Origin: Escherichia phage vB_EcoM-Pr121LW
Sequence record: MH752840.1
Reading direction: 5' to 3' (one strand)
DNA length: 64,000 bases
The notes beneath the pieces were generated by a model, which saw only the letters and a list, made by a program, of their open reading frames with translations, had not been told where the DNA came from and made no database searches. Of this stretch, positions 43,725 to 62,434 are shown piece by piece (the first letter of the stretch is position 1; the number at the start of each line of letters is the position of its first letter). The translations under genes were made by a program, and so were the position numbers.

Positions 43725-44207
43725 ATGTCAGATTTTATGTGGAAAGTTGGTTATTCCTCCCCTGAAATGTGTAAGGCCTGTTTTGTGAAAATAGGTCGCG
43801 AAGATATCGACAAAGTGATCCTTAAGTTTCGTGATGTGGCTGTGATCGGCAACCGAGTGCTTAAGCACTTAAAGAATCTGAAGCTCACCAAAAAGAAATT
43901 CTTCGGACTTTTCGAAGAGAAAGTTGATGCTTGGACCCATTGCATTCAGGAAGCTAAATCTCACTACAGTGCTATCGTTACCCCAGAACGGGTAGCCAAG
44001 ATGGAAGGACTCATCAACAGCACAGAGTTTGAGTGTCTGAAAGCTGCACTCGATAGTTATCCGAAATGCCTCAAGCACTTGGACAAGTATGTAGAAAAGG
44101 ATGGGGAAATGTATCTCACCCTGGACGCATACTATGAGATGCAAGAAATTTTAAATTTAGATTTGACATTGGTATCCACCGAGTATACAATAGGTATCCG
44201 GGTTTAA
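43725..44207 (+). CDS. hypothetical protein
   Basis: 160-aa ORF, RBS aaggagaagg; terminator follows. Confidence 0.4.
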   Translation: MSDFMWKVGYSSPEMCKACFVKIGREDIDKVILKFRDVAVIGNRVLKHLKNLKLTKKKFFGLFEEKVDAWTHCIQEAKSHYSAIVTPERVAKMEGLINSTEFECLKAALDSYPKCLKHLDKYVEKDGEMYLTLDAYYEMQEILNLDLTLVSTEYTIGIRV

Positions 44208-44213
44208 CACTAG

Positions 44214-44240
44214 GCCCTGCCCGAAAGGGTGGGGCTTTTT
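44214..44240 (+). terminator. rho-independent terminator
   Basis: gccctgcccgaaagggtggggc hairpin (with G-U pairs) followed by ttttt. Confidence 0.7.
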
Positions 44241-47149: not shown

Positions 47150-49927
47150 ATGAGTATGTATAGCTTCGATTTTGAGGCCTCTGGGCTTTTGGAAGATCCA
47201 GACCTTTATTATCACTGCGGCCTGTTTAAAGCGTTGAATAAGAACCGTTTTATGCTGTTCCTTCCTCTGAATGACCGCACACACTACTCCGAGGAGGATA
47301 TAGAGAAGGCTAAGAACTTTATTCTGGCAAAGAAAACTCTTTATAAGGATTTTGAAGTTCGCATAGCAGATTTTTCGGAGTTGGAAGGTTGGCTTACAGG
47401 AAATTCTGACTGGTCACCAACAGCTTTGAACTGCCATAACTGCTACAGTTATGACTTTATGCTGATGGAGAGATTGTCCGGTATTCATTTTGATATGTTC
47501 CGTGACCCTAAGTGTATGGGGACTATCAACGACCACCAGGTTAATCTGTTTGATACGTTGGCGATGAGCCGAATCTTGTGGCCTGATCGCCCTTTACCAA
47601 AAGGTTGTCCGGACTCTGTATTCAACCCGGTTACTAAGAAAATGCAGCCTGTTGGTCCTCACGGACTTATGGCATGGGGCTACGCCCTTGGTAACCAGAA
47701 AGTTCAAATTGATGACTGGCGCGATCTTCCGTTGTGGAAGTATGTGGATCGTGTATTCGAGGACGTTATCATCCAGGAGCTGCTCTGGAAAGAGCTGGTA
47801 GCGGAATCAAAAGGTGTATTCTACGGCAAATCTGACATGCAGAACTTTATGTACGATCCTGCCAAAGAGAAGCCGAAAGGGTTCAAGAAGATCACCTGGA
47901 AGAACGCATTACGCCGAGGCATGCTGCAGCACTTCCTGATGGAACTGCAGGCCCGTCAGGGTGTGTATTTTGACATAGATGGAGCTATTGCTTTACGTGA
48001 CCGTTGCGATGCGTGGATGAAAGAAATCGCTGATCGTGTTGAACCTCAACTTCCTTTAAAAGAGTTATCAATATCTCAGCGGCCCAAGTTCCCTGAAAAG
48101 CCGTTTAACCAAGACGGGACAATCTCTAATAATGGTTGGAAATGGTTAAAAGATAAGCTTGGCTATCCTGTAGACATGAGCGCTTTAGATTTCAAATCCC
48201 CGCCTAAGCGAGCATTTACCTCTACAGGAGATGTCAGCAAGATGGGGATAAAATGGTGTGAAGAGATGGGCTGCAAAGACCCCGATAAGATGGCTGATTT
48301 CTTGAGAGGCTATATTAAGGGCACTTCCACACCTCACCCTTTGCCTAAAGAGCTGATGGATCAGGCAATAAGTGATCTACAGCAGAAGCGAATGCCGGAC
48401 TGCAAGATACCTATGAAAATCAGCAATCAGGACGACATTAAGCGGTATCTGATCAGTGCTGGCTGGCTACCGACAATGTGGAGAACTAAGGATGTAACTA
48501 AAGATAGCAAGAAGAAAGCTCTACCTGATGCGGATGTTGATGCACGAGTATATGCATATATGGACGAGCTTTTAGAGTCAGAGTATTGTGACCTGATTAT
48601 CAACTTCTGGAACAAAACTGATGCCAAGTTCCAGACAACTGTGCACAAGTTCCGAAGCTTTCCTAACTCTGAAAGGATTAAAAAGGAAGTATTCGGGAAA
48701 ATACGTAGAAAAGCCAGAGCACTTATTACTTCTCCGCAACTGAAAGATACGTTTGGACACCTGTGTCCGAATCTTGAAAAATTGAACGGAGAGATGGCTA
48801 AAGATATCGTCTTGTGGTTATCATTGCGAAACCGCAGATCAGTCCTTGACCCAATCAAGGAGGATAAGGTTGATACTGGTCTTCTTAATCACCCACGTTT
48901 GAAGATTGACCATAAGCTTCCTGCTAAAAGCTCTGGATTAACAAACACTTCCAGACAGAAACACAGTATTTGTGCAAACATGCCTAAACCATCCCCCAAA
49001 GTGGTTATGGGTAAAGAGATGCGCAGTCTGTGGGGTGTTCCTCCTGGATACTTTCAGATCGGTATTGACGGGTCCAACTTAGAGCAGCTTATCGGGGCTT
49101 GGGGTGCCTTTGAGTTCGACAACGGCTTGTATTATGATGTTGTAAGTAACGGGGACGCACACCAAAACAATGCTGAGGCATATACAAAAGTAGCAGGCAG
49201 AGAGGTGTCTCGTAACGACGGTAAACCTATCACGTATGGGGTTATGTACGGGGCACAAAAAGATAAAGTTGCAGATATGCTGGACATCTCTCCAGAGTTG
49301 GGACAAAGGGTAATCGATGCACTCTGGGATGCCAACCCTGGTCTCAAGGGGCGCAAAGAGGATCTGGAGAAATTCTGGGAAGCAACTGGTAAGAAGTTTA
49401 TCTACTCTTTTGATGGTCATGCTATCTGGACCAGATCTAAACACTCTTTACTTAATGCATACCAACAGAATGGTGGTGCATCGCTGTGTGACTTAGTTGG
49501 GATACTTATGCACCACCAGATGGTGAAGCGTGGGTGGTACGATGAAGGTGTTCGTCGTATTATCTATTACCATGATGAGTACCAACTTCAGGTCCCTGAC
49601 ACTCCTAAGTATAAGACTGTGTACACCTTCGACACAATTGAAGAACTGGAAGCATTTAAGGCAGAGCAGGAGGCCAAACTTCATGTGTTCGACGGTCATA
49701 AGTACAAAAAGGCACGCAAGGATGAGGACGGAAACGAAGTGGTTGACAGAGACGGAAACACGGTGTACGATCCTATCCTGAACGATGACGGAAAGCTTGA
49801 ACTTATCTGGAGCCCTGTGGGTGAAATGGTGGTGCATTGCTTCTGGCAAGCTTCTAAAATGATGGGAGTCCCGTTCCAGATCACAGGTGAATACTTGTGT
49901 GGTCGTAACTGGGGTGATTGTCACTAA
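47150..49927 (+). CDS. family A DNA polymerase with 3-prime to 5-prime exonuclease domain
   Basis: Exo I-like FDFEASG; motif A IDGSNLEQL; motif B RNDGKPITYGVMYG; motif C YYHDEYQL; 925 aa. Confidence 0.8.
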   Translation: MSMYSFDFEASGLLEDPDLYYHCGLFKALNKNRFMLFLPLNDRTHYSEEDIEKAKNFILAKKTLYKDFEVRIADFSELEGWLTGNSDWSPTALNCHNCYSYDFMLMERLSGIHFDMFRDPKCMGTINDHQVNLFDTLAMSRILWPDRPLPKGCPDSVFNPVTKKMQPVGPHGLMAWGYALGNQKVQIDDWRDLPLWKYVDRVFEDVIIQELLWKELVAESKGVFYGKSDMQNFMYDPAKEKPKGFKKITWKNALRRGMLQHFLMELQARQGVYFDIDGAIALRDRCDAWMKEIADRVEPQLPLKELSISQRPKFPEKPFNQDGTISNNGWKWLKDKLGYPVDMSALDFKSPPKRAFTSTGDVSKMGIKWCEEMGCKDPDKMADFLRGYIKGTSTPHPLPKELMDQAISDLQQKRMPDCKIPMKISNQDDIKRYLISAGWLPTMWRTKDVTKDSKKKALPDADVDARVYAYMDELLESEYCDLIINFWNKTDAKFQTTVHKFRSFPNSERIKKEVFGKIRRKARALITSPQLKDTFGHLCPNLEKLNGEMAKDIVLWLSLRNRRSVLDPIKEDKVDTGLLNHPRLKIDHKLPAKSSGLTNTSRQKHSICANMPKPSPKVVMGKEMRSLWGVPPGYFQIGIDGSNLEQLIGAWGAFEFDNGLYYDVVSNGDAHQNNAEAYTKVAGREVSRNDGKPITYGVMYGAQKDKVADMLDISPELGQRVIDALWDANPGLKGRKEDLEKFWEATGKKFIYSFDGHAIWTRSKHSLLNAYQQNGGASLCDLVGILMHHQMVKRGWYDEGVRRIIYYHDEYQLQVPDTPKYKTVYTFDTIEELEAFKAEQEAKLHVFDGHKYKKARKDEDGNEVVDRDGNTVYDPILNDDGKLELIWSPVGEMVVHCFWQASKMMGVPFQITGEYLCGRNWGDCH

Positions 49928-49976
49928 TGTAAACTATCAGCACAGGGAGGTGCTGTCAAGCAAAGAGGAAACTTTT

Positions 49977-50261
49977 ATGGTAGTAGAACCAACAAAAACA
50001 TTTACATCCATGACTATTCCTGTTATTATGCAGGTGGAGTGTGTTCAGGTATCTCAAGTGTGGCCTGGCACCAAAATCCCAACAGGGCCTGATTTCTTTC
50101 AGGTTGGGAAAGTGTACAATGTCTGGAAGGCACCAGATTGTTACCCTTTCATTAAAGATGACCGTGGGATGCTGTGGTACCTTGGAAATGACTTGACACT
50201 GCACCTTGGGAATACTATTATTGCAGTATTCAGACTTAACAAGAAGGAGACCGATCAATGA
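49977..50261 (+). CDS. small protein, paralog family member
   Basis: ATG 49977 with RBS aagagga; shares FxxGKxY ... KDDxGxxWY motif with neighbours. Confidence 0.4.
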   Translation: MVVEPTKTFTSMTIPVIMQVECVQVSQVWPGTKIPTGPDFFQVGKVYNVWKAPDCYPFIKDDRGMLWYLGNDLTLHLGNTIIAVFRLNKKETDQ

Positions 50262-50485
50262 CGACTTTGGTTAAAGCTACCTTTGTAGAAGAAAAGATGA
50301 CAGACCTGTCATTCTTTAAAGAAGGAAAGACCTACGAGGTTTATTACGATAAAGCTCGTGCAAACAAAATGATTAAAGACGAGGAAGGGGTTGCCTGGTA
50401 TATCTCTCACCTGGCAAACGGTGAGTATCATATCTACGGGACCACTTTGCTTGCCAAGTTTGTAGTTGTTGAAGAGGACCTATGA
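50258..50485 (+). CDS. small protein, paralog family member
   Basis: FFKEGKTYEVYY ... IKDEEGVAWYI. Confidence 0.4.
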   Translation: MTTLVKATFVEEKMTDLSFFKEGKTYEVYYDKARANKMIKDEEGVAWYISHLANGEYHIYGTTLLAKFVVVEEDL

Positions 50486-50676
50486 AAGCAAAGTATCTTG
50501 CTGAAGGTATGAATAGGTATTTTACCCTTGGTGAAGAATATTGGCCCTTTACAAACAACGGCGATGTCTACGTGAAAGATAATTTCGGCACGCCGTGGTT
50601 TCTGCACTCTAATGGGCTGGGATACTCTATTTACTGCGGTGCAGTGAACAACACAACTCTTGCAGAGTTCGTTTAG
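50482..50676 (+). CDS. small protein, paralog family member
   Basis: FTLGEEYWPF ... VKDNFGTPWFL. Confidence 0.4.
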   Translation: MKAKYLAEGMNRYFTLGEEYWPFTNNGDVYVKDNFGTPWFLHSNGLGYSIYCGAVNNTTLAEFV

Positions 50677-50686
50677 AGGAGGTAGG

Positions 50687-51058
50687 ATGCTAGTAAAAGG
50701 TACCCACACAGTCAAACAACGTATTGAAGTTGAGATTGATGACTGTGAGCTGAAGCATATTTTACGGTCATGCTCCAACGTTTTGCTCCTTAGTATTCTT
50801 CAGGAGCGAGCGGAGAACGAGTTCTTAAATGCATTGGCAGGCCGTCCAGGTGACTTTTGTGTGCGTAAGCGTGGTGACAACAAGTCATGGTTGTGGGAAA
50901 TCGATGCCGACTGGGATTACCACAAAAATGAGGGCATAGATGAGCCTATTCGTGAACTGACGGACAAAGAGATTCAGATGTACAATGAAGTTTGTCATTG
51001 GGCAACACGCCAACAAATTTACCTAGACCCTGTGTGGCTGATTGAAAATAGCCATTGA
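50687..51058 (+). CDS. hypothetical protein
   Basis: ATG 50687 with RBS gaggagg; track start 50660 overlaps upstream gene. Confidence 0.4.
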   Translation: MLVKGTHTVKQRIEVEIDDCELKHILRSCSNVLLLSILQERAENEFLNALAGRPGDFCVRKRGDNKSWLWEIDADWDYHKNEGIDEPIRELTDKEIQMYNEVCHWATRQQIYLDPVWLIENSH

Positions 51059-51134
51059 CAAGAAGTAAGATTAGATATAAGATGCTTCACACAAACAAAG
51101 CGTTGATTTTTAAATAACTAAGGAGACTGCCAAG

Positions 51135-51389
51135 ATGAAAATTACTTTGAAGCCAGAATGCGTTGCAAATGACCGAGCTTTTAAAGATTGCACAGTCGGT
51201 GCAATCTATGAAGCAGAGTTTTGTGAGAACCCTCTGGTAAAAGCCCTTCTGGAAGAAGGGGCCCCTTTATCACAAGAAGAGATTGATGAGCTGGAAAACT
51301 CAGCACAGTGCCTTACCTTTAAAGATGATGAAGGAGACTCTGTCTGGTGCACTGTTAATGAGGTAGTTTTTGTAAAACCTGAACATTAA
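51135..51389 (+). CDS. small protein, paralog family member
   Basis: AFKDCTVGAIYEAEF ... FKDDEGDSVWCT; paralog of 51453 ORF. Confidence 0.4.
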   Translation: MKITLKPECVANDRAFKDCTVGAIYEAEFCENPLVKALLEEGAPLSQEEIDELENSAQCLTFKDDEGDSVWCTVNEVVFVKPEH

Positions 51390-51392
51390 TAC

Positions 51393-51430
51393 TTGACAAC
51401 AGTGATAGGGCCTAATATAATGGCCCTATC
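51393..51430 (+). promoter_or_regulatory. consensus sigma70 promoter (TTGACA-17-TATAAT) embedded in 9-bp perfect inverted repeat
   Basis: -35 51393-51398, -10 51416-51421; palindrome gatagggcc (51404-51412) / ggccctatc (51422-51430) centred on the -10. Confidence 0.6.
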
Positions 51431-51452
51431 AAAACGAAAGGGGACCACAGCA

Positions 51453-51725
51453 ATGACCAAACAATATCAACGAATTAAAGCCAAGGTTAAGCCAGACTAT
51501 CTGGAGAAAGACTCTGCTTTTCGGGACTGCACAGCCGACAAAGTTTACACAGGGGCCGTCCTGTTGAACGATGAACTTGAAGTAGATATTCTGGGTAAAG
51601 AGGCCACTATTAAGGACGACCAAGGCGATTATGTTTGCTGCACCACACGTGAGCTAGAAATCTTAGAATACTTCGGTGAAATCTTCACCTCTCTTGATGA
51701 TTACTTAGATGATGAGGAAGCGTGA
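51453..51725 (+). CDS. small protein, paralog family member
   Basis: ATG 51453 with RBS aaagggga; AFRDCTADKVYTGAV ... IKDDQGDYVCCT. Confidence 0.4.
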   Translation: MTKQYQRIKAKVKPDYLEKDSAFRDCTADKVYTGAVLLNDELEVDILGKEATIKDDQGDYVCCTTRELEILEYFGEIFTSLDDYLDDEEA

Positions 51726-52423: not shown

Positions 52424-52669
52424 ATGACTGAAGTAGTTGCTCGCGCAGGACAGAAAGTACGTTGTGTTGAAGTAGGTTTTGGTGGCAAAGGGTGTCAAAA
52501 CTTGACTCAAGGTAAGGAATACGCTGTTATCTCTGGTGGTGGCGACGAAAGTATTGTGTTCGAGGGCCACATCCTGGATGCTGAAAACTTTGAAATCTTT
52601 GACGACGATGGGGATCCGATCACCTGCCTGCTGGACGGGAATTGGGGAACTTTCGAAGTGATTGGCTAA
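52424..52669 (+). CDS. small protein, paralog family member
   Basis: LTQGKEYAVIS ... FDDDGDPITCLL; RBS aggagacc. Confidence 0.4.
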   Translation: MTEVVARAGQKVRCVEVGFGGKGCQNLTQGKEYAVISGGGDESIVFEGHILDAENFEIFDDDGDPITCLLDGNWGTFEVIG

Positions 52670-52752: not shown

Positions 52753-53118
52753 ATGGAACAAATGAACGATCAAGAGTCGGTTGCGATGAACGAGCAAGAA
52801 CAACCTCAAGAATTTTTCTTAGGGTTAAGTAAAGATCAAGTGTCTCTTTTGCTAGTGCTTTCTTCTTTCATGGGAAGACTTCAGGAGCTCACACAACAAC
52901 CGGAGGCTGAACAATTATTTCAGGCTCTGCGTGAAGAAGAAAAATATCGTCGTTTGGACTATGCCTTAGGTTGGGTAGCTCAACAACGAGATATGCTAAT
53001 GGCCCTCTCTGGGACCACAAGTTTTGCAATGGGCCTATTGGCTCAAGTTCAGGACAAATTAATTCAAGCAGGGTTTGCACACACGGCAAACACTAACGAA
53101 GAACAAGGAGACAAATAA
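52753..53118 (+). CDS. hypothetical protein
   Basis: 121-aa ORF, RBS cggaga, immediately upstream of SSB. Confidence 0.4.
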   Translation: MEQMNDQESVAMNEQEQPQEFFLGLSKDQVSLLLVLSSFMGRLQELTQQPEAEQLFQALREEEKYRRLDYALGWVAQQRDMLMALSGTTSFAMGLLAQVQDKLIQAGFAHTANTNEEQGDK

Positions 53119-54344
53119 TGAGCGTTATTCAACAATTTGCTAACCCGATGAATCCGCGTGAAACTGTTTTACTGGCTCACGGTATGATCAAGCGTGTTAG
53201 CATCAAACCTATTAAAGGAGCTGATCCTGCAACAGGTATTAAAACCACCGTGTGGCAAGGTAAGAAAATTGAATCCAGCCACACCATCTCTTTACTGATT
53301 TCTGAACTGGATTCCTCTGATAACCTACTTCAAGGCGGTGAAGAAGTCTGGATCAGCATGGGTGATAAGCTGCTTAAACCTGGCCATCAAGACTCTGTCT
53401 CTGTTAAGATTGATGACAAGTGGGAAACCGTAACGCCAGGATGGATCGTAAATATTCCTTTGAAGGCAAACGAGCATAACGGTAAGACCTATTACAAAGG
53501 CTCACTGGCTAAGATGGTCAAGCTGGGTGCAGGAGAGGCTCCAGCAGCGACTCAGCAGCAAAAACAGCAACAAGGTGCACAATCACAAGGCCAGAAGCAG
53601 AAACCTCAGCAGAATGCCAATCAGGACGTTTTACGCATCTATGGCGATGTGACTCAGATTGTTGGCAACGTGGTTACTGTTAATGACCACAAGATCGGCG
53701 AAGGTGCTATGGTTGTCACGGATGAGCAGCTTAAAGACCTGGTGGTAGGTGGTCGTGTTGCAGCCATTGTTGACAAAGACACCGGAAACATTATCAGTGG
53801 TTTCAAAGCCTATCCACCTAAGGCAGAGAACGGCACCCAAGGTTCTGGTGGCAAGCGTAAATCCTCTTACGACCCTATTGGTGTGGAGACTGGGCATAGC
53901 ATCAATGCGTTGCAAATCATCCTGGATCGCGGGTTTAAGGTAGACGACCCACTAGGTGTGGCTAAAGCACTGCACGTAGTCACCATTGAGCTTAAGAAAG
54001 AGTATGCTCAAGCCACCAACCGAACTGAAGATGAAGTAGGTGCCAGTGTCGGTAATGCGGTGTTGAACGCTTGTCGCCGTATTGACAAGAAAACGAAAGT
54101 TGATGATTTTGCAGCGGCAATTACTGCAGAAGCAAAAGATGTGTTGACTAATCTGGCTGAGCCGTTGTACGATTGGATCAAGAACGGTGCTGGGTCAACT
54201 GACCATCAAGAACCTCAGGCTGCCAAACAGGAAGCAGCTCCACAGCAAAACACTGTAGACGCTCCTCCTGTAAATGATGGGGAAGACGACCCGATGGATC
54301 AGAATCCAGCACAGTACGCCTTTGATGATGACATCCCCTTCTAA
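53118..54344 (+). CDS. ssb: single-stranded DNA-binding protein with acidic C-terminal tail
   Basis: C-terminus ends YAFDDDIPF, matching the DDDIPF partner-binding tail of bacterial SSB; Gln-rich linker; replication-module context. Confidence 0.6.
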   Translation: MSVIQQFANPMNPRETVLLAHGMIKRVSIKPIKGADPATGIKTTVWQGKKIESSHTISLLISELDSSDNLLQGGEEVWISMGDKLLKPGHQDSVSVKIDDKWETVTPGWIVNIPLKANEHNGKTYYKGSLAKMVKLGAGEAPAATQQQKQQQGAQSQGQKQKPQQNANQDVLRIYGDVTQIVGNVVTVNDHKIGEGAMVVTDEQLKDLVVGGRVAAIVDKDTGNIISGFKAYPPKAENGTQGSGGKRKSSYDPIGVETGHSINALQIILDRGFKVDDPLGVAKALHVVTIELKKEYAQATNRTEDEVGASVGNAVLNACRRIDKKTKVDDFAAAITAEAKDVLTNLAEPLYDWIKNGAGSTDHQEPQAAKQEAAPQQNTVDAPPVNDGEDDPMDQNPAQYAFDDDIPF

Positions 54345-57886: not shown

Positions 57887-58901
57887 TATTTTAAGTTATC
57901 AGGTTCCCAGAGATCAGGAGGATTTCTAAAATGGATTTCCTCCTTTTGATATTTCACCGGACCAGATATTTTAAAATTCTTAGAAAATCAGAAAATGGAT
58001 CGAAAACTAAAATGGATTTTTTCAACACAGGCGCGGAAAATTGTGCCAATCTATCTAGCCGTTTGCACCATATTCGAAATCACCGTTCCAGATTTCCCAC
58101 ACATACACACCTCCCCGCCATACCTTTCTCCACTCACTCTTAGTGATTTATGACGGAAAACCCATCACTATCAGTGAGTTGCGGTACAATTTTTCCAGTA
58201 CTCGATCTACTTTTCATTTCATGGTTTGGATTTTCTGAAAATTTTTCTCGATAAATTTCTCAGTACTCGATCTGTTTTTCGTTTTCTGAATCGGATTTTC
58301 TGGAAATCGTTCCGGCTCTCGACCTGAAATTTTTGGGGACGAAATCGATTTTTCGTTTTCAGAAATGGATTTTTAAAATTTCTATATGGGAATATTTTAT
58401 GGGGTACTGTTTTATAGGAAATTGTTACGGATGGTAATTAGCATGCTAATTAAATTTATTAAATGCGAGGAGTTCTCATTTAGAATTTTGAATGATAATC
58501 ATTCTCGTTTGCAGAATAACGGGCAGGCCCGGTGATTGTCTCCCGGCCCCTACTGCCCCGGCTTGCTATTATAGTAACACACAGGACAAAGAAAGCAAGA
58601 AGTTTTTGCATAAATTTTTAGACGATAATGATAATCGTTCTCATTTCATGCAGCGCCCATCCCCGGTGGTTGTCTCCCCCGTCACCGGTGCCTGCCGTCC
58701 TTTCGATAGGTATATTGTGCCACCTGGCGGGGCCGCTGTCAACACTTTTCAAAAAATTTTTCTAACCTGATGCGCTAACCGCTGCAACCTGGCGGGGCCA
58801 GCCTGGCAGTACCTAACTGACCAGGTAGGAGAGAATGAAGGCTTGTAAACCTGGTGGGCCTATGCTATAGGATAGGTAACAATTGAAGAGGAGGTACAAA
58901 A
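57887..58901. other. about 1-kb non-coding region with several families of short direct repeats
   Basis: Four aaaatggat copies, two cagtactcgatct copies, two tttcgttttc copies, two gataatcNttctcNttt ... cccggtgNttgtctccc units (58493-58565, 58623-58700), two cctggcggggcc copies; no ORF with credible coding character. Confidence 0.6.
57916..57955 (+). terminator. hairpin aggagga / tcctcct with T-rich tail (possible terminator)
   Basis: 7-bp stem with 15-nt loop followed by tttgatattt; just after last replication-module gene. Confidence 0.35.
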
Positions 58902-59424: not shown

Positions 59425-59823
59425 ATGAAAACCACAACCTTTAATTTTGATAATGCCGACTTCTCTTTTTCTGATGTCAAGAACTGCCGCCGTGATCGTG
59501 GATTTTACAAGGCTTATAATCTGGTGGGCCTGGACGATGACAATAATTTGCACGAAGTAGCTGAGATCCGGTATTATGCCGCCTCCAGCGGTAACACTCA
59601 TTATTGCGTCTTTTGGATGCACGACAGCAAGAACAACAAGTACGGTTATACTGGTGGCAAGGCGAGCGGTCACGGTTATGATAAGGCCAATGCAGCACTT
59701 GAAAGCGCGTTAAATGCTATGGGGATCACTGCCAACGGCTGGATCTATGAAGATGAGTTTTTGTCAGCACTTGCTGCCCACCTGGGGTATAAAAAGCACA
59801 TTGTGACATGCGCCCACGAATAA
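59425..59823 (+). CDS. early protein, unknown function
   Basis: 132 aa; own promoter 59364-59392 and RBS. Confidence 0.5.
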   Translation: MKTTTFNFDNADFSFSDVKNCRRDRGFYKAYNLVGLDDDNNLHEVAEIRYYAASSGNTHYCVFWMHDSKNNKYGYTGGKASGHGYDKANAALESALNAMGITANGWIYEDEFLSALAAHLGYKKHIVTCAHE

Positions 59824-59838
59824 AAAAAAAAAAAATTA

Positions 59839-59866
59839 TTGACACGCTGCAAAATTAAAGTAAACT
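59839..59866 (+). promoter_or_regulatory. early promoter (TTGACA-16-TAAACT) with upstream A-tract
   Basis: Hexamers with 16-nt spacer; a14 run at 59822-59835. Confidence 0.55.
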
Positions 59867-59876
59867 AGACACAAAA

Positions 59877-59895
59877 GGCGGGAATGTTTCCCGCC
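59877..59895 (+). promoter_or_regulatory. 5-prime UTR stem-loop
   Basis: ggcgggaatgtttcccgcc, 7-bp GC stem about 10 nt after the -10. Confidence 0.5.
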
Positions 59896-59914
59896 AACAC
59901 AAAGGAAAAAGATC

Positions 59915-60311: not shown

Positions 60312-60358
60312 TTTATTTTTAGATGGCCTTGACTCCAGGGCCATCAATAAAGTAAACT
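60312..60358 (+). repeat. 47-bp intergenic cassette, copy 1
   Basis: tttatttttagatggccttgactccagggccatcaataaagtaaact; T-run, inverted repeat gatggcc/ggccatc, TTGACT-18-TAAACT promoter-like hexamers. Confidence 0.7.
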
Positions 60359-60389
60359 AACCACAGTTGAGCGGAAAGGGGGCTTAAAG

Positions 60390-60509: not shown

Positions 60510-60537
60510 TTGACAAGCTAACTTAGATCAGTATACT
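60510..60537 (+). promoter_or_regulatory. early promoter (TTGACA-16-TATACT)
   Basis: Hexamers with 16-nt spacer. Confidence 0.6.
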
Positions 60538-60587
60538 AAACACATAAACGGGAAAACTTCCCAGAACACACAAAAGGAGAAAACACC

Positions 60588-60929
60588 ATGACTACTATGA
60601 CCGCCGCAGAAAAAGCTATGCAGATCGCTGCGCTGAAAAAACAGATCGCAGACCTTGAGAACAAGATCGATAACTTTGAAATCGACGAGGACAAGTACGA
60701 CGAAAACTATGATGAATGGTTAGACGAGATCTACGGCGAAATTATGATCGGAAACATTTCTTTTCTTCCGTCGCGTATCCTCAAGGAGCTAGATCCTATC
60801 GCTTACCGCTGCGGATTTAGCGACTACATCGACAGCCTGGATATTGAGGACGATGAAGAATACCAGGAATTGCAGACAGAGCTTGAAGAAGTGAAAGAAG
60901 AGCTTTCAGAGCTGGAAGAAAACGAGTAA
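60588..60929 (+). CDS. acidic early protein
   Basis: 113 aa, strongly acidic C-terminal half; own promoter 60510-60537. Confidence 0.5.
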   Translation: MTTMTAAEKAMQIAALKKQIADLENKIDNFEIDEDKYDENYDEWLDEIYGEIMIGNISFLPSRILKELDPIAYRCGFSDYIDSLDIEDDEEYQELQTELEEVKEELSELEENE

Positions 60930-60930
60930 A

Positions 60931-60977
60931 TTTATTTTTAGATGGCCTTGACTCCAGGGCCATCAATAAAGTAAACT
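60931..60977 (+). repeat. 47-bp intergenic cassette, copy 2 (identical to 60312-60358)
   Basis: Exact repeat read from sequence; a degenerate third copy lies at about 61264-61315. Confidence 0.7.
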
Positions 60978-61018
60978 TTACACTGTTAACACTGAACTAA
61001 TACAGAGGAGTTAAAACC

Positions 61019-61264: not shown

Positions 61265-61339
61265 TTATTTTTTCGGTGGTCCTTGCTGCAGGGCCATCTA
61301 TAAAGATAATTTACTAACACCATGAAAGGAGAAAGTAAC

Positions 61340-62377: not shown

Positions 62378-62387
62378 TAAACACACA

Positions 62388-62406
62388 GGCGGGAAAACTT
62401 CCCGCC
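62388..62406 (+). promoter_or_regulatory. 5-prime UTR stem-loop
   Basis: ggcgggaaaacttcccgcc, near-identical to hairpin at 59877. Confidence 0.5.
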
Positions 62407-62434
62407 ACCAACAAAGAAAACAGGAGAAAATATC

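Follow-up and report, generated by a model that had tools for sequence, protein, structure and literature searches.

Composite cassettes that join a promoter to a stem-loop, the PeSLs (promoter-early stem-loops), are known from the T4-like phages RB49/phi1, PST and nt-1 (Arbiol et al. 2010, PMC2839356; Comeau et al. 2014, PMC4122927). In the commonest published registers, the stem-loop lies "between -35 and -10" or is described as "overlapping the -10 box" (PMC2839356). PeSL stems have been drawn with G-T pairs, and the role proposed for the stem-loop is that of a terminator or attenuator of upstream transcription (PMC2839356; PMC4122927).

We analyzed an element at position 51393 of a 64,000-nucleotide stretch of Escherichia phage vB_EcoM-Pr121LW (MH752840.1; hereafter, the window), in which a promoter and a hairpin overlap. 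In common with PeSLs, it joins a sigma70-consensus early promoter (here matching the consensus at 12/12 positions, with a 17-nt spacer) to a stable stem-loop. Its setting is shared as well: a variable early region, with the stop codon of a small ORFan on one side and the Shine-Dalgarno sequence and ATG of a second small ORFan on the other. Its register, with the -10 in the loop, also fits the published layout. However, PeSLs form a repeated family, whereas the 51393 element is single-copy and its flanks are also unique in the LL12-type genome. PeSLs belong to T4-like myoviruses, whereas this element occurs in Vequintavirus, and a literature search found no paper linking PeSLs to that genus. 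The polyG/polyC stem of PeSLs is absent here and no U-tract follows the stem, while the gene shuffling and recombination associated with PeSLs have left no footprint among 40 relatives. PeSLs thus appear to be the closest known kind, and the 51393 element seems PeSL-like in its proposed function, although it lacks several features that mark members of the family.

A second point of comparison is provided by REP elements, which are intercistronic mRNA-stabilising hairpins in E. coli operons (e.g., malE-malF). The 51393 stem-loop is likewise a U-less, GC-rich stem-loop that follows a cistron in a polycistronic unit, and it could similarly protect upstream RNA from 3' exonucleases. To our knowledge, REP elements have no sequence similarity to it; moreover, the present hairpin belongs to a phage and overlaps a promoter, and its stabilising function is putative.

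The region containing the element is 99.4-99.9% identical to Escherichia phage LL12, and 115 records of Vequintavirus (rV5-like myoviruses) match it at 88-99% identity. When tblastn was run with the downstream gene and the gene after it, the same 115 Vequintavirus records were recovered, and none outside the genus. The locus belongs to an early region that lies downstream of the gene for DNA polymerase and in which all local genes are on the + strand. Its features, in window coordinates, are as follows.

51055-51083, + strand: upstream promoter TTGACA-17-TAAGAT, found by promoter scan; its equivalent is the annotated promoter P220 of rV5 (PMC3606486)
51135-51389, + strand: upstream paralogue of 84 aa (phrog_12544), with its stop codon at 51387-51389; its mRNA runs into the hairpin
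51393-51398, + strand: -35 hexamer TTGACA, read directly; the same in 23/23 haplotypes
51399-51415, + strand: promoter spacer of 17 nt, read directly
51403-51412, + strand: 5' arm of the stem, TGATAGGGCC, within the promoter spacer; from direct reading and the RNA fold
51413-51421, + strand: 9-nt loop TAATATAAT, consisting of three variable bases and then the -10
51416-51421, + strand: -10 hexamer TATAAT, wholly inside the hairpin loop; relatives differ at position 3 only (T/C)
51422-51431, + strand: 3' arm of the stem, GGCCCTATCA, spanning the discriminator (with an invariant GG) and the predicted start site
51428, + strand: predicted transcription start (A), 7 nt past the -10, placed by standard sigma70 promoter geometry
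51437-51444, + strand: Shine-Dalgarno sequence AAAGGGGA of the 90-aa gene; the LL12 record has a ribosome-binding site annotated here
51453-51725, + strand: downstream paralogue of 90 aa with an acidic C-terminus (phrog_11936), the first gene served by the promoter

The original prediction, made from this sequence, described a consensus promoter, TTGACA-17-TATAAT, nested in a perfect 9-bp inverted repeat around the -10. Direct reading of 51393-51421 bears out the promoter, which agrees with the consensus at all 12 hexamer positions. The repeat is also as described, its core arms GATAGGGCC (51404-51412) and GGCCCTATC (51422-51430) being complementary without a mismatch, and it in fact reaches one pair further, to T51403/A51431, giving a stem of 10 bp (51403-51412 and 51422-51431) with a 9-nt loop. 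The stem begins 14 nt past the stop codon of the 84-aa gene and ends 22 nt ahead of ATG 51453. The intergenic gap of 63 nt is mostly taken up by the promoter/hairpin element; the tail 3' of the stem is AAAACGAAAGG, which contains no U-tract.

By simple arithmetic, a promoter with a 12/12 match to the consensus is expected about 0.02 times in 64 kb; the window contains three, all on the + strand and all within 44-64 kb. Within that 44-64 kb region there are 67 promoter-like sites, compared with 37.8 +/- 6.1 in shuffled sequences. Conservation was followed in 40 copies of the intergenic region, 25 of them from phage records and 15 from metagenome or Logan contigs, which reduce to 23 distinct 70-nt haplotypes. 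Among them the -35 is invariant (0/6 columns variable), the 17-nt spacing is fixed, with zero indels in the interval from -35 to -10, and the -10 is either TATAAT or TACAAT (1/6 columns variable). Because the -35, the spacing and five of the six -10 positions never vary, we take the promoter to be real, as had been predicted; on this comparative evidence, it is a conserved host-type sigma70 early promoter of rV5-like phages. The two G residues directly after the -10 (G51422 and G51423) are also invariant, and their partners in the 5' arm change from C to T, giving U.G pairs. The 21 nt ahead of the -35 are about 71% A+T (counted by hand), but this stretch is the end of the upstream coding sequence, and no A/T run of the type present at 59820 or 62330 occurs upstream of the 51393 promoter. 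At the rV5 equivalent of 51393, neither a promoter nor a terminator appears in the GenBank record or in Table S4 (PMC3606486).

The hairpin is stable by prediction. As + strand RNA, the 81-nt region 51380-51460 folds at -19.6 kcal/mol (z = -3.2); the value for the stem by itself is -18.3 kcal/mol. A hairpin of -15 kcal/mol or better turns up in about 0.7% of random 79-nt segments of the genome; even so, the present one, at -17.5 kcal/mol, is the strongest among 109 promoter-like sites of the ~136-kb genome (the window plus the rest of the LL12-type genome). The palindrome pattern, allowing up to 3 mismatches, occurs once in the window, where 0.02 occurrences are expected. For promoter-like sites as a class there is no enrichment, since 5.5% of them have a hairpin of -10 kcal/mol or better compared with 3.9% of random segments. 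Rfam has no family that covers 51393-51431, even at E <= 10.

It is also important to consider that perfect hairpins can arise by chance. With stems of at least 9 bp and loops of 3-12 nt, the window contains 6 distinct perfect hairpins, against 2.6 +/- 1.9 hits in mononucleotide shuffles, so that chance alone supplies a few hairpins of such size in every 64 kb. The coincidence of the hairpin with the promoter is thus only marginally beyond chance, with p roughly 0.01-0.1. The coincidence is no more than suggestive, and the weight of the argument rests on the comparative evidence.

Among the 23 haplotypes, the arms behave very differently from the hexamers and belong to the most variable part of the gap: 14/18 arm columns vary, as much as the unconstrained spacer (4/5 columns) and the first three loop bases (3/3). 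Apart from the -10, then, no part of the loop is constrained. The 5' core arm (51404-51412) varies at 8/9 columns, and the changes keep the pairing. Over the nine core pairs, pairing is kept in 96.6% of 207 pair cells even though none of the nine pairs (0/9) is invariant, while slid control registers pair at 27-47%. Of 500 shuffles, 2-4 reach the cell measures that were observed, and at the level of pairs 26 of 500 reach the observed value. The outermost position, T51403, varies as well; among the first 16 haplotypes, it was paired in 7.

Compensatory changes, with both sides altered, are seen in three of the nine pairs, and in each case an intermediate is present. A U-A pair has become C-G in one sequence (L042), with C.A in another (L022) and U.G in four more (L035-L038). 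An A-U pair has become G.U, which is common, and then G-C in phage CM1. Finally, a G-C pair is G.U in one sequence (L020) and A-U in the rV5 clade and CM1. By our own tally, 27/34 non-consensus arm cells preserve the pair and 7/34 do not. Each disrupting variant is confined to a single haplotype and to at most two of the 40 sequences, whereas the G.U variant at 51408 occurs in 8 haplotypes and about 20/40 sequences.

The strand on which the pairs survive is informative. Of the one-sided changes, 17 cells form G.U on the + strand, versus 4 that pair on the - strand only. The haplotype shared by four independent contigs (L035-L038) contains three G.U pairs. As + strand RNA, it keeps a 9-pair stem at -13.4 kcal/mol in 77% of the ensemble; as - strand RNA, it loses the stem (-6.1 kcal/mol, z = -0.4); and in DNA, neither strand retains it. 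The G.U bias and the behavior of this haplotype together point to + strand RNA, rather than to a palindrome in duplex DNA or a cruciform.

These observations bear directly on the proposal, made in the original prediction, that the palindrome has the geometry of an operator for a dimeric repressor. Such a repressor, from phage or host, would shut the promoter off by binding over the -10 and start. In its favor, a perfect dyad flanks the -10, and the half-site centres lie about 19-20 bp apart, on the same face of the helix; very strong early promoters, moreover, often need to be shut off. The dyad symmetry centred near the -10 and start recalls LexA, lambda cI/Cro and LacI-type operators. However, a half-site of 9 bp that is read by a protein would be expected to stay constant, and in phages only about 10% apart 14/18 arm columns vary, as compared with 1/12 hexamer columns. 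The arms are conserved in complementarity and not, as in the classical operators, in sequence: their changes follow the pairing by way of G.U intermediates rather than preserving a fixed recognition sequence, and in the L035-L038 haplotype the site is asymmetric at 3/9 positions in duplex DNA while the stem still forms in + strand RNA. With two 9-bp arms and 9 bp between them, the site is also longer and more widely spaced than typical operators of 16-21 bp.

Furthermore, the classical operators differ from this locus, which is a single site with no linked repressor gene. The palindrome or its half-sites, searched with any spacer of 3-15 nt and up to 3 mismatches, have no second copy in ~136 kb; at 4-5 mismatches there are partial matches, GC-rich terminator stems among them. 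A scan of viral contigs in which the arms were left free returned two contigs, both of them known already. In a Pfam scan of 10 neighboring ORF products, no match to a DNA-binding domain reached the cut-off (0/10); the flanking paralogues themselves are acidic ORFans. At least one protein elsewhere in the genome (read from LL12) is a borderline match to HTH_36, at 24.9 bits against a cut-off of 25, and is annotated as a "putative transcriptional regulator", which lends the operator some support, but nothing ties this protein to the 51393 site. Thus, the dyad around the -10 stands, whereas its reading as the target of a dimeric repressor does not fare well: the operator appears to be the weaker explanation in comparison with an RNA stem-loop, and we consider it improbable.

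Alternatively, the structure could act at the level of DNA, as a cruciform or non-template-strand hairpin that exposes the -10 and makes the promoter sensitive to supercoiling, or as a site of recombination or replication. An AT-rich 9-nt centre between GC-rich arms would suit such a role, and the hairpin in the window is stable as DNA on either strand (-10.3 and -10.2 kcal/mol, with z about -6). PeSLs, too, have been proposed as recombination sites (PMC2839356). Against this, a G.T pair on the + strand is an A.C mismatch on the other strand, and the 51408 variant, found in about 20/40 sequences, is of this type; the L035-L038 haplotype retains no DNA stem at all. The order of 84-aa gene, element and 90-aa gene is unchanged in 40/40 relatives, and no recombination breakpoints are seen here. 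We regard a DNA-level structure as very unlikely.

A more serious alternative is that the inverted repeat has no function, and is an ancestral chance palindrome that has not yet decayed, aided by template-switch correction. Besides the chance frequency of such hairpins noted above, this explanation gains from the closeness of the relatives (88-99% identity), since at a divergence of only about 10% much of the pairing could simply be inherited. The formal co-occurrence tests are weak: in a naive test, one pair is significant (p 0.02), and the combined p is 0.25. When the changes are counted as events, there are about 10 that preserve pairs versus 5-6 that disrupt them, a split that is not significant alone, and the strand asymmetry becomes 7 versus 3 events, likewise not significant alone. 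The correction of quasi-palindromes by template switching in replication could also mimic compensation without selection, and the invariant GG of the 3' arm is explicable by the promoter discriminator alone. On the other side stand the 27 of 34 non-consensus arm cells that still pair, the rarity of disrupting variants in comparison with the widespread G.U at 51408, the specificity of the register relative to the slid controls, and the several further U-less hairpins, conserved or repeated, that lie at boundaries between genes in the same early region. Taking these points together, selection on pairing is likely but not proven, and the covariation statistics are suggestive rather than decisive. 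Absence of function seems to us a possible but unlikely explanation.

We return to the reading that we favor, with moderate confidence: the element would be a compact early promoter/stem-loop module whose hairpin acts as RNA on read-through transcripts. Host sigma70 RNA polymerase would start at ~51428 and drive the downstream paralogue and the genes after it. Because the predicted start is inside the 3' arm, the promoter's own transcripts would not contain the hairpin. Read-through from the 51055 promoter across the upstream paralogue, by contrast, would yield transcripts with the whole 10-bp stem-loop. On these, the hairpin might slow or attenuate the read-through, block 3' exonucleases, or both, and so give the upstream cistron a defined, stable 3' end. 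The downstream genes would then depend mainly on their own promoter for their level of expression. What the comparison shows is that promoter and stem are both conserved, with arms whose sequence can vary provided that their + strand pairing survives. The role as an attenuator or stabiliser and the position of the start site are, in each case, what we infer to be most likely from the sequence. In this reading, the overlap of the hairpin with the -10 would save space in the 63-nt gap and would not be a regulatory operator geometry.

A classical intrinsic terminator was also considered. The stem resembles those of rho-independent terminators in being a GC-rich stem of 9-10 bp past a stop codon, with about -18 kcal/mol as RNA; however, the 8 nt past the stem (tail AAACGAAAGG) contain 0 T, and a U-tract is present on neither strand, so we rejected this candidate. 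The hairpin is likewise absent both from our terminator scan and from the rV5 terminator list (PMC3606486). The lack of a U-tract makes an attenuator or a 3'-end stabiliser more likely than a classical terminator. A literature search for transcript maps or measured transcript ends found none for any Vequintavirus.

We also considered that the position of the -10 in the loop could be a coupling device and not a way of saving space, i.e., a structure-gated sigma70 promoter in a lytic phage. Read-through from the promoter of the upstream paralogue could pause RNA polymerase over the downstream promoter, or the hairpin, in RNA or in the non-template strand of the DNA, could be recognised by a factor of the phage. 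If this were true, expression of one paralogue would exclude that of the other or be timed relative to it, but we judge such a device to be highly improbable.

Viewed as a promoter/stem-loop module acting through RNA, the element suggests that composite cassettes of this kind, so far described in T4-like phages, are also used by an unrelated group of E. coli myoviruses in their early region. Vequintavirus phages are popular in phage therapy and biocontrol, and the locus offers a compact, very strong host-type promoter with natural G.U and compensatory variants for probing U-less intercistronic hairpins. It reveals no new mechanism; its main value is in annotation and as a natural set of variants.

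The annotation of the downstream gene illustrates the former. Starts at ATG 51420 or TTG 51393, either of which would make the 3' arm coding, were considered and rejected: phage CM1 has an in-frame stop, and two sequences (L011 and L015) have 1-nt indels in the G-run ahead of ATG 51453. ATG 51453 is therefore the real start. In several relatives, including rV5 (gp214), inoa_159 and HMD-6 (the loci concerned are L002, L005, L006 and L022), the annotated start is at the ATG in the -10 box/right arm or further upstream. The promoter and hairpin are missing from the published rV5 lists, and with the gene start of these relatives lying in the -10 box, the present analysis corrects the annotation in both respects.

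The original prediction further held that the two small genes flanking the element are paralogous, and this proved correct: the 84-aa and 90-aa products are 32% identical (E 1e-10), with reciprocal PHROG cross-hits. In Pfam and PHROG searches, both are ORFans, and both products are acidic. The paralogous family may exceed two genes. Small ORFs at 49887-50676 and 52424-52669 share, by eye, a short motif of the type "G..Y.V....IKDD.G..WY", and the PHROG cross-hits of further small ORFs are weak.

Other intergenic gaps of the early region likewise join promoters with U-less hairpins, in other registers. By listing hairpins directly, we found two repeated cassettes (D1 and D3), each present three times; these are nearer to the repeated PeSL type than is the 51393 element. 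One is a 38-nt cassette at 59866-59903, 60537-60574 and 62378-62415. Its hairpin, GGCGGGAA..TTCCCGCC, begins about 10 nt past the -10 of strong promoters at 59839, 60510 and 62350, so that it lies near the 5' end of these promoters' transcripts; in the scan, it is terminator-like on the - strand. The other is a 57-nt intergenic cassette at 60312-60368, 60931-60987 and 61265-61321. It consists of a T-rich run, a hairpin GATGGCCTTGACTCCAGGGCCATC whose arm and loop include a -35-like TTGACT, then 18 nt, and TAAACT. Copies 1 and 2 are 93% identical and lie on either side of an ORF at 60588-60929, while copy 3 has diverged, with three stem changes that all preserve pairing on the + strand. No copy of the 38-nt or 57-nt cassettes has a + strand U-tract. 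The 57-nt cassettes look like repeated PeSL-type elements.

Several further structures in the window were observed in the course of this work. At 58188-58373, there are three ~65-nt direct repeats with 74-77% identity in a gap without a long ORF, and the third repeat overlaps a 16-pair hairpin that is followed by a T-run. At 44163-44237, the promoter TTGACA-17-TACAAT (P231 of rV5) is followed 20 nt later by a strong terminator at 44212-44237 (t232 of rV5); if the terminator is not leaky, this promoter would give transcripts of about 40 nt. The 84-aa gene contains within its coding sequence, at 51185-51207, a perfect 9-bp hairpin, AGATTGCAC AGTCG GTGCAATCT, with -11.5 kcal/mol. Finally, a 408-aa product encoded at 53118-54344 has a Q-rich middle and ends in ...FDDDIPF. 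This end is like the acidic tail of E. coli SSB, and the product may be a single-strand-binding protein of the phage or one that mimics that tail.
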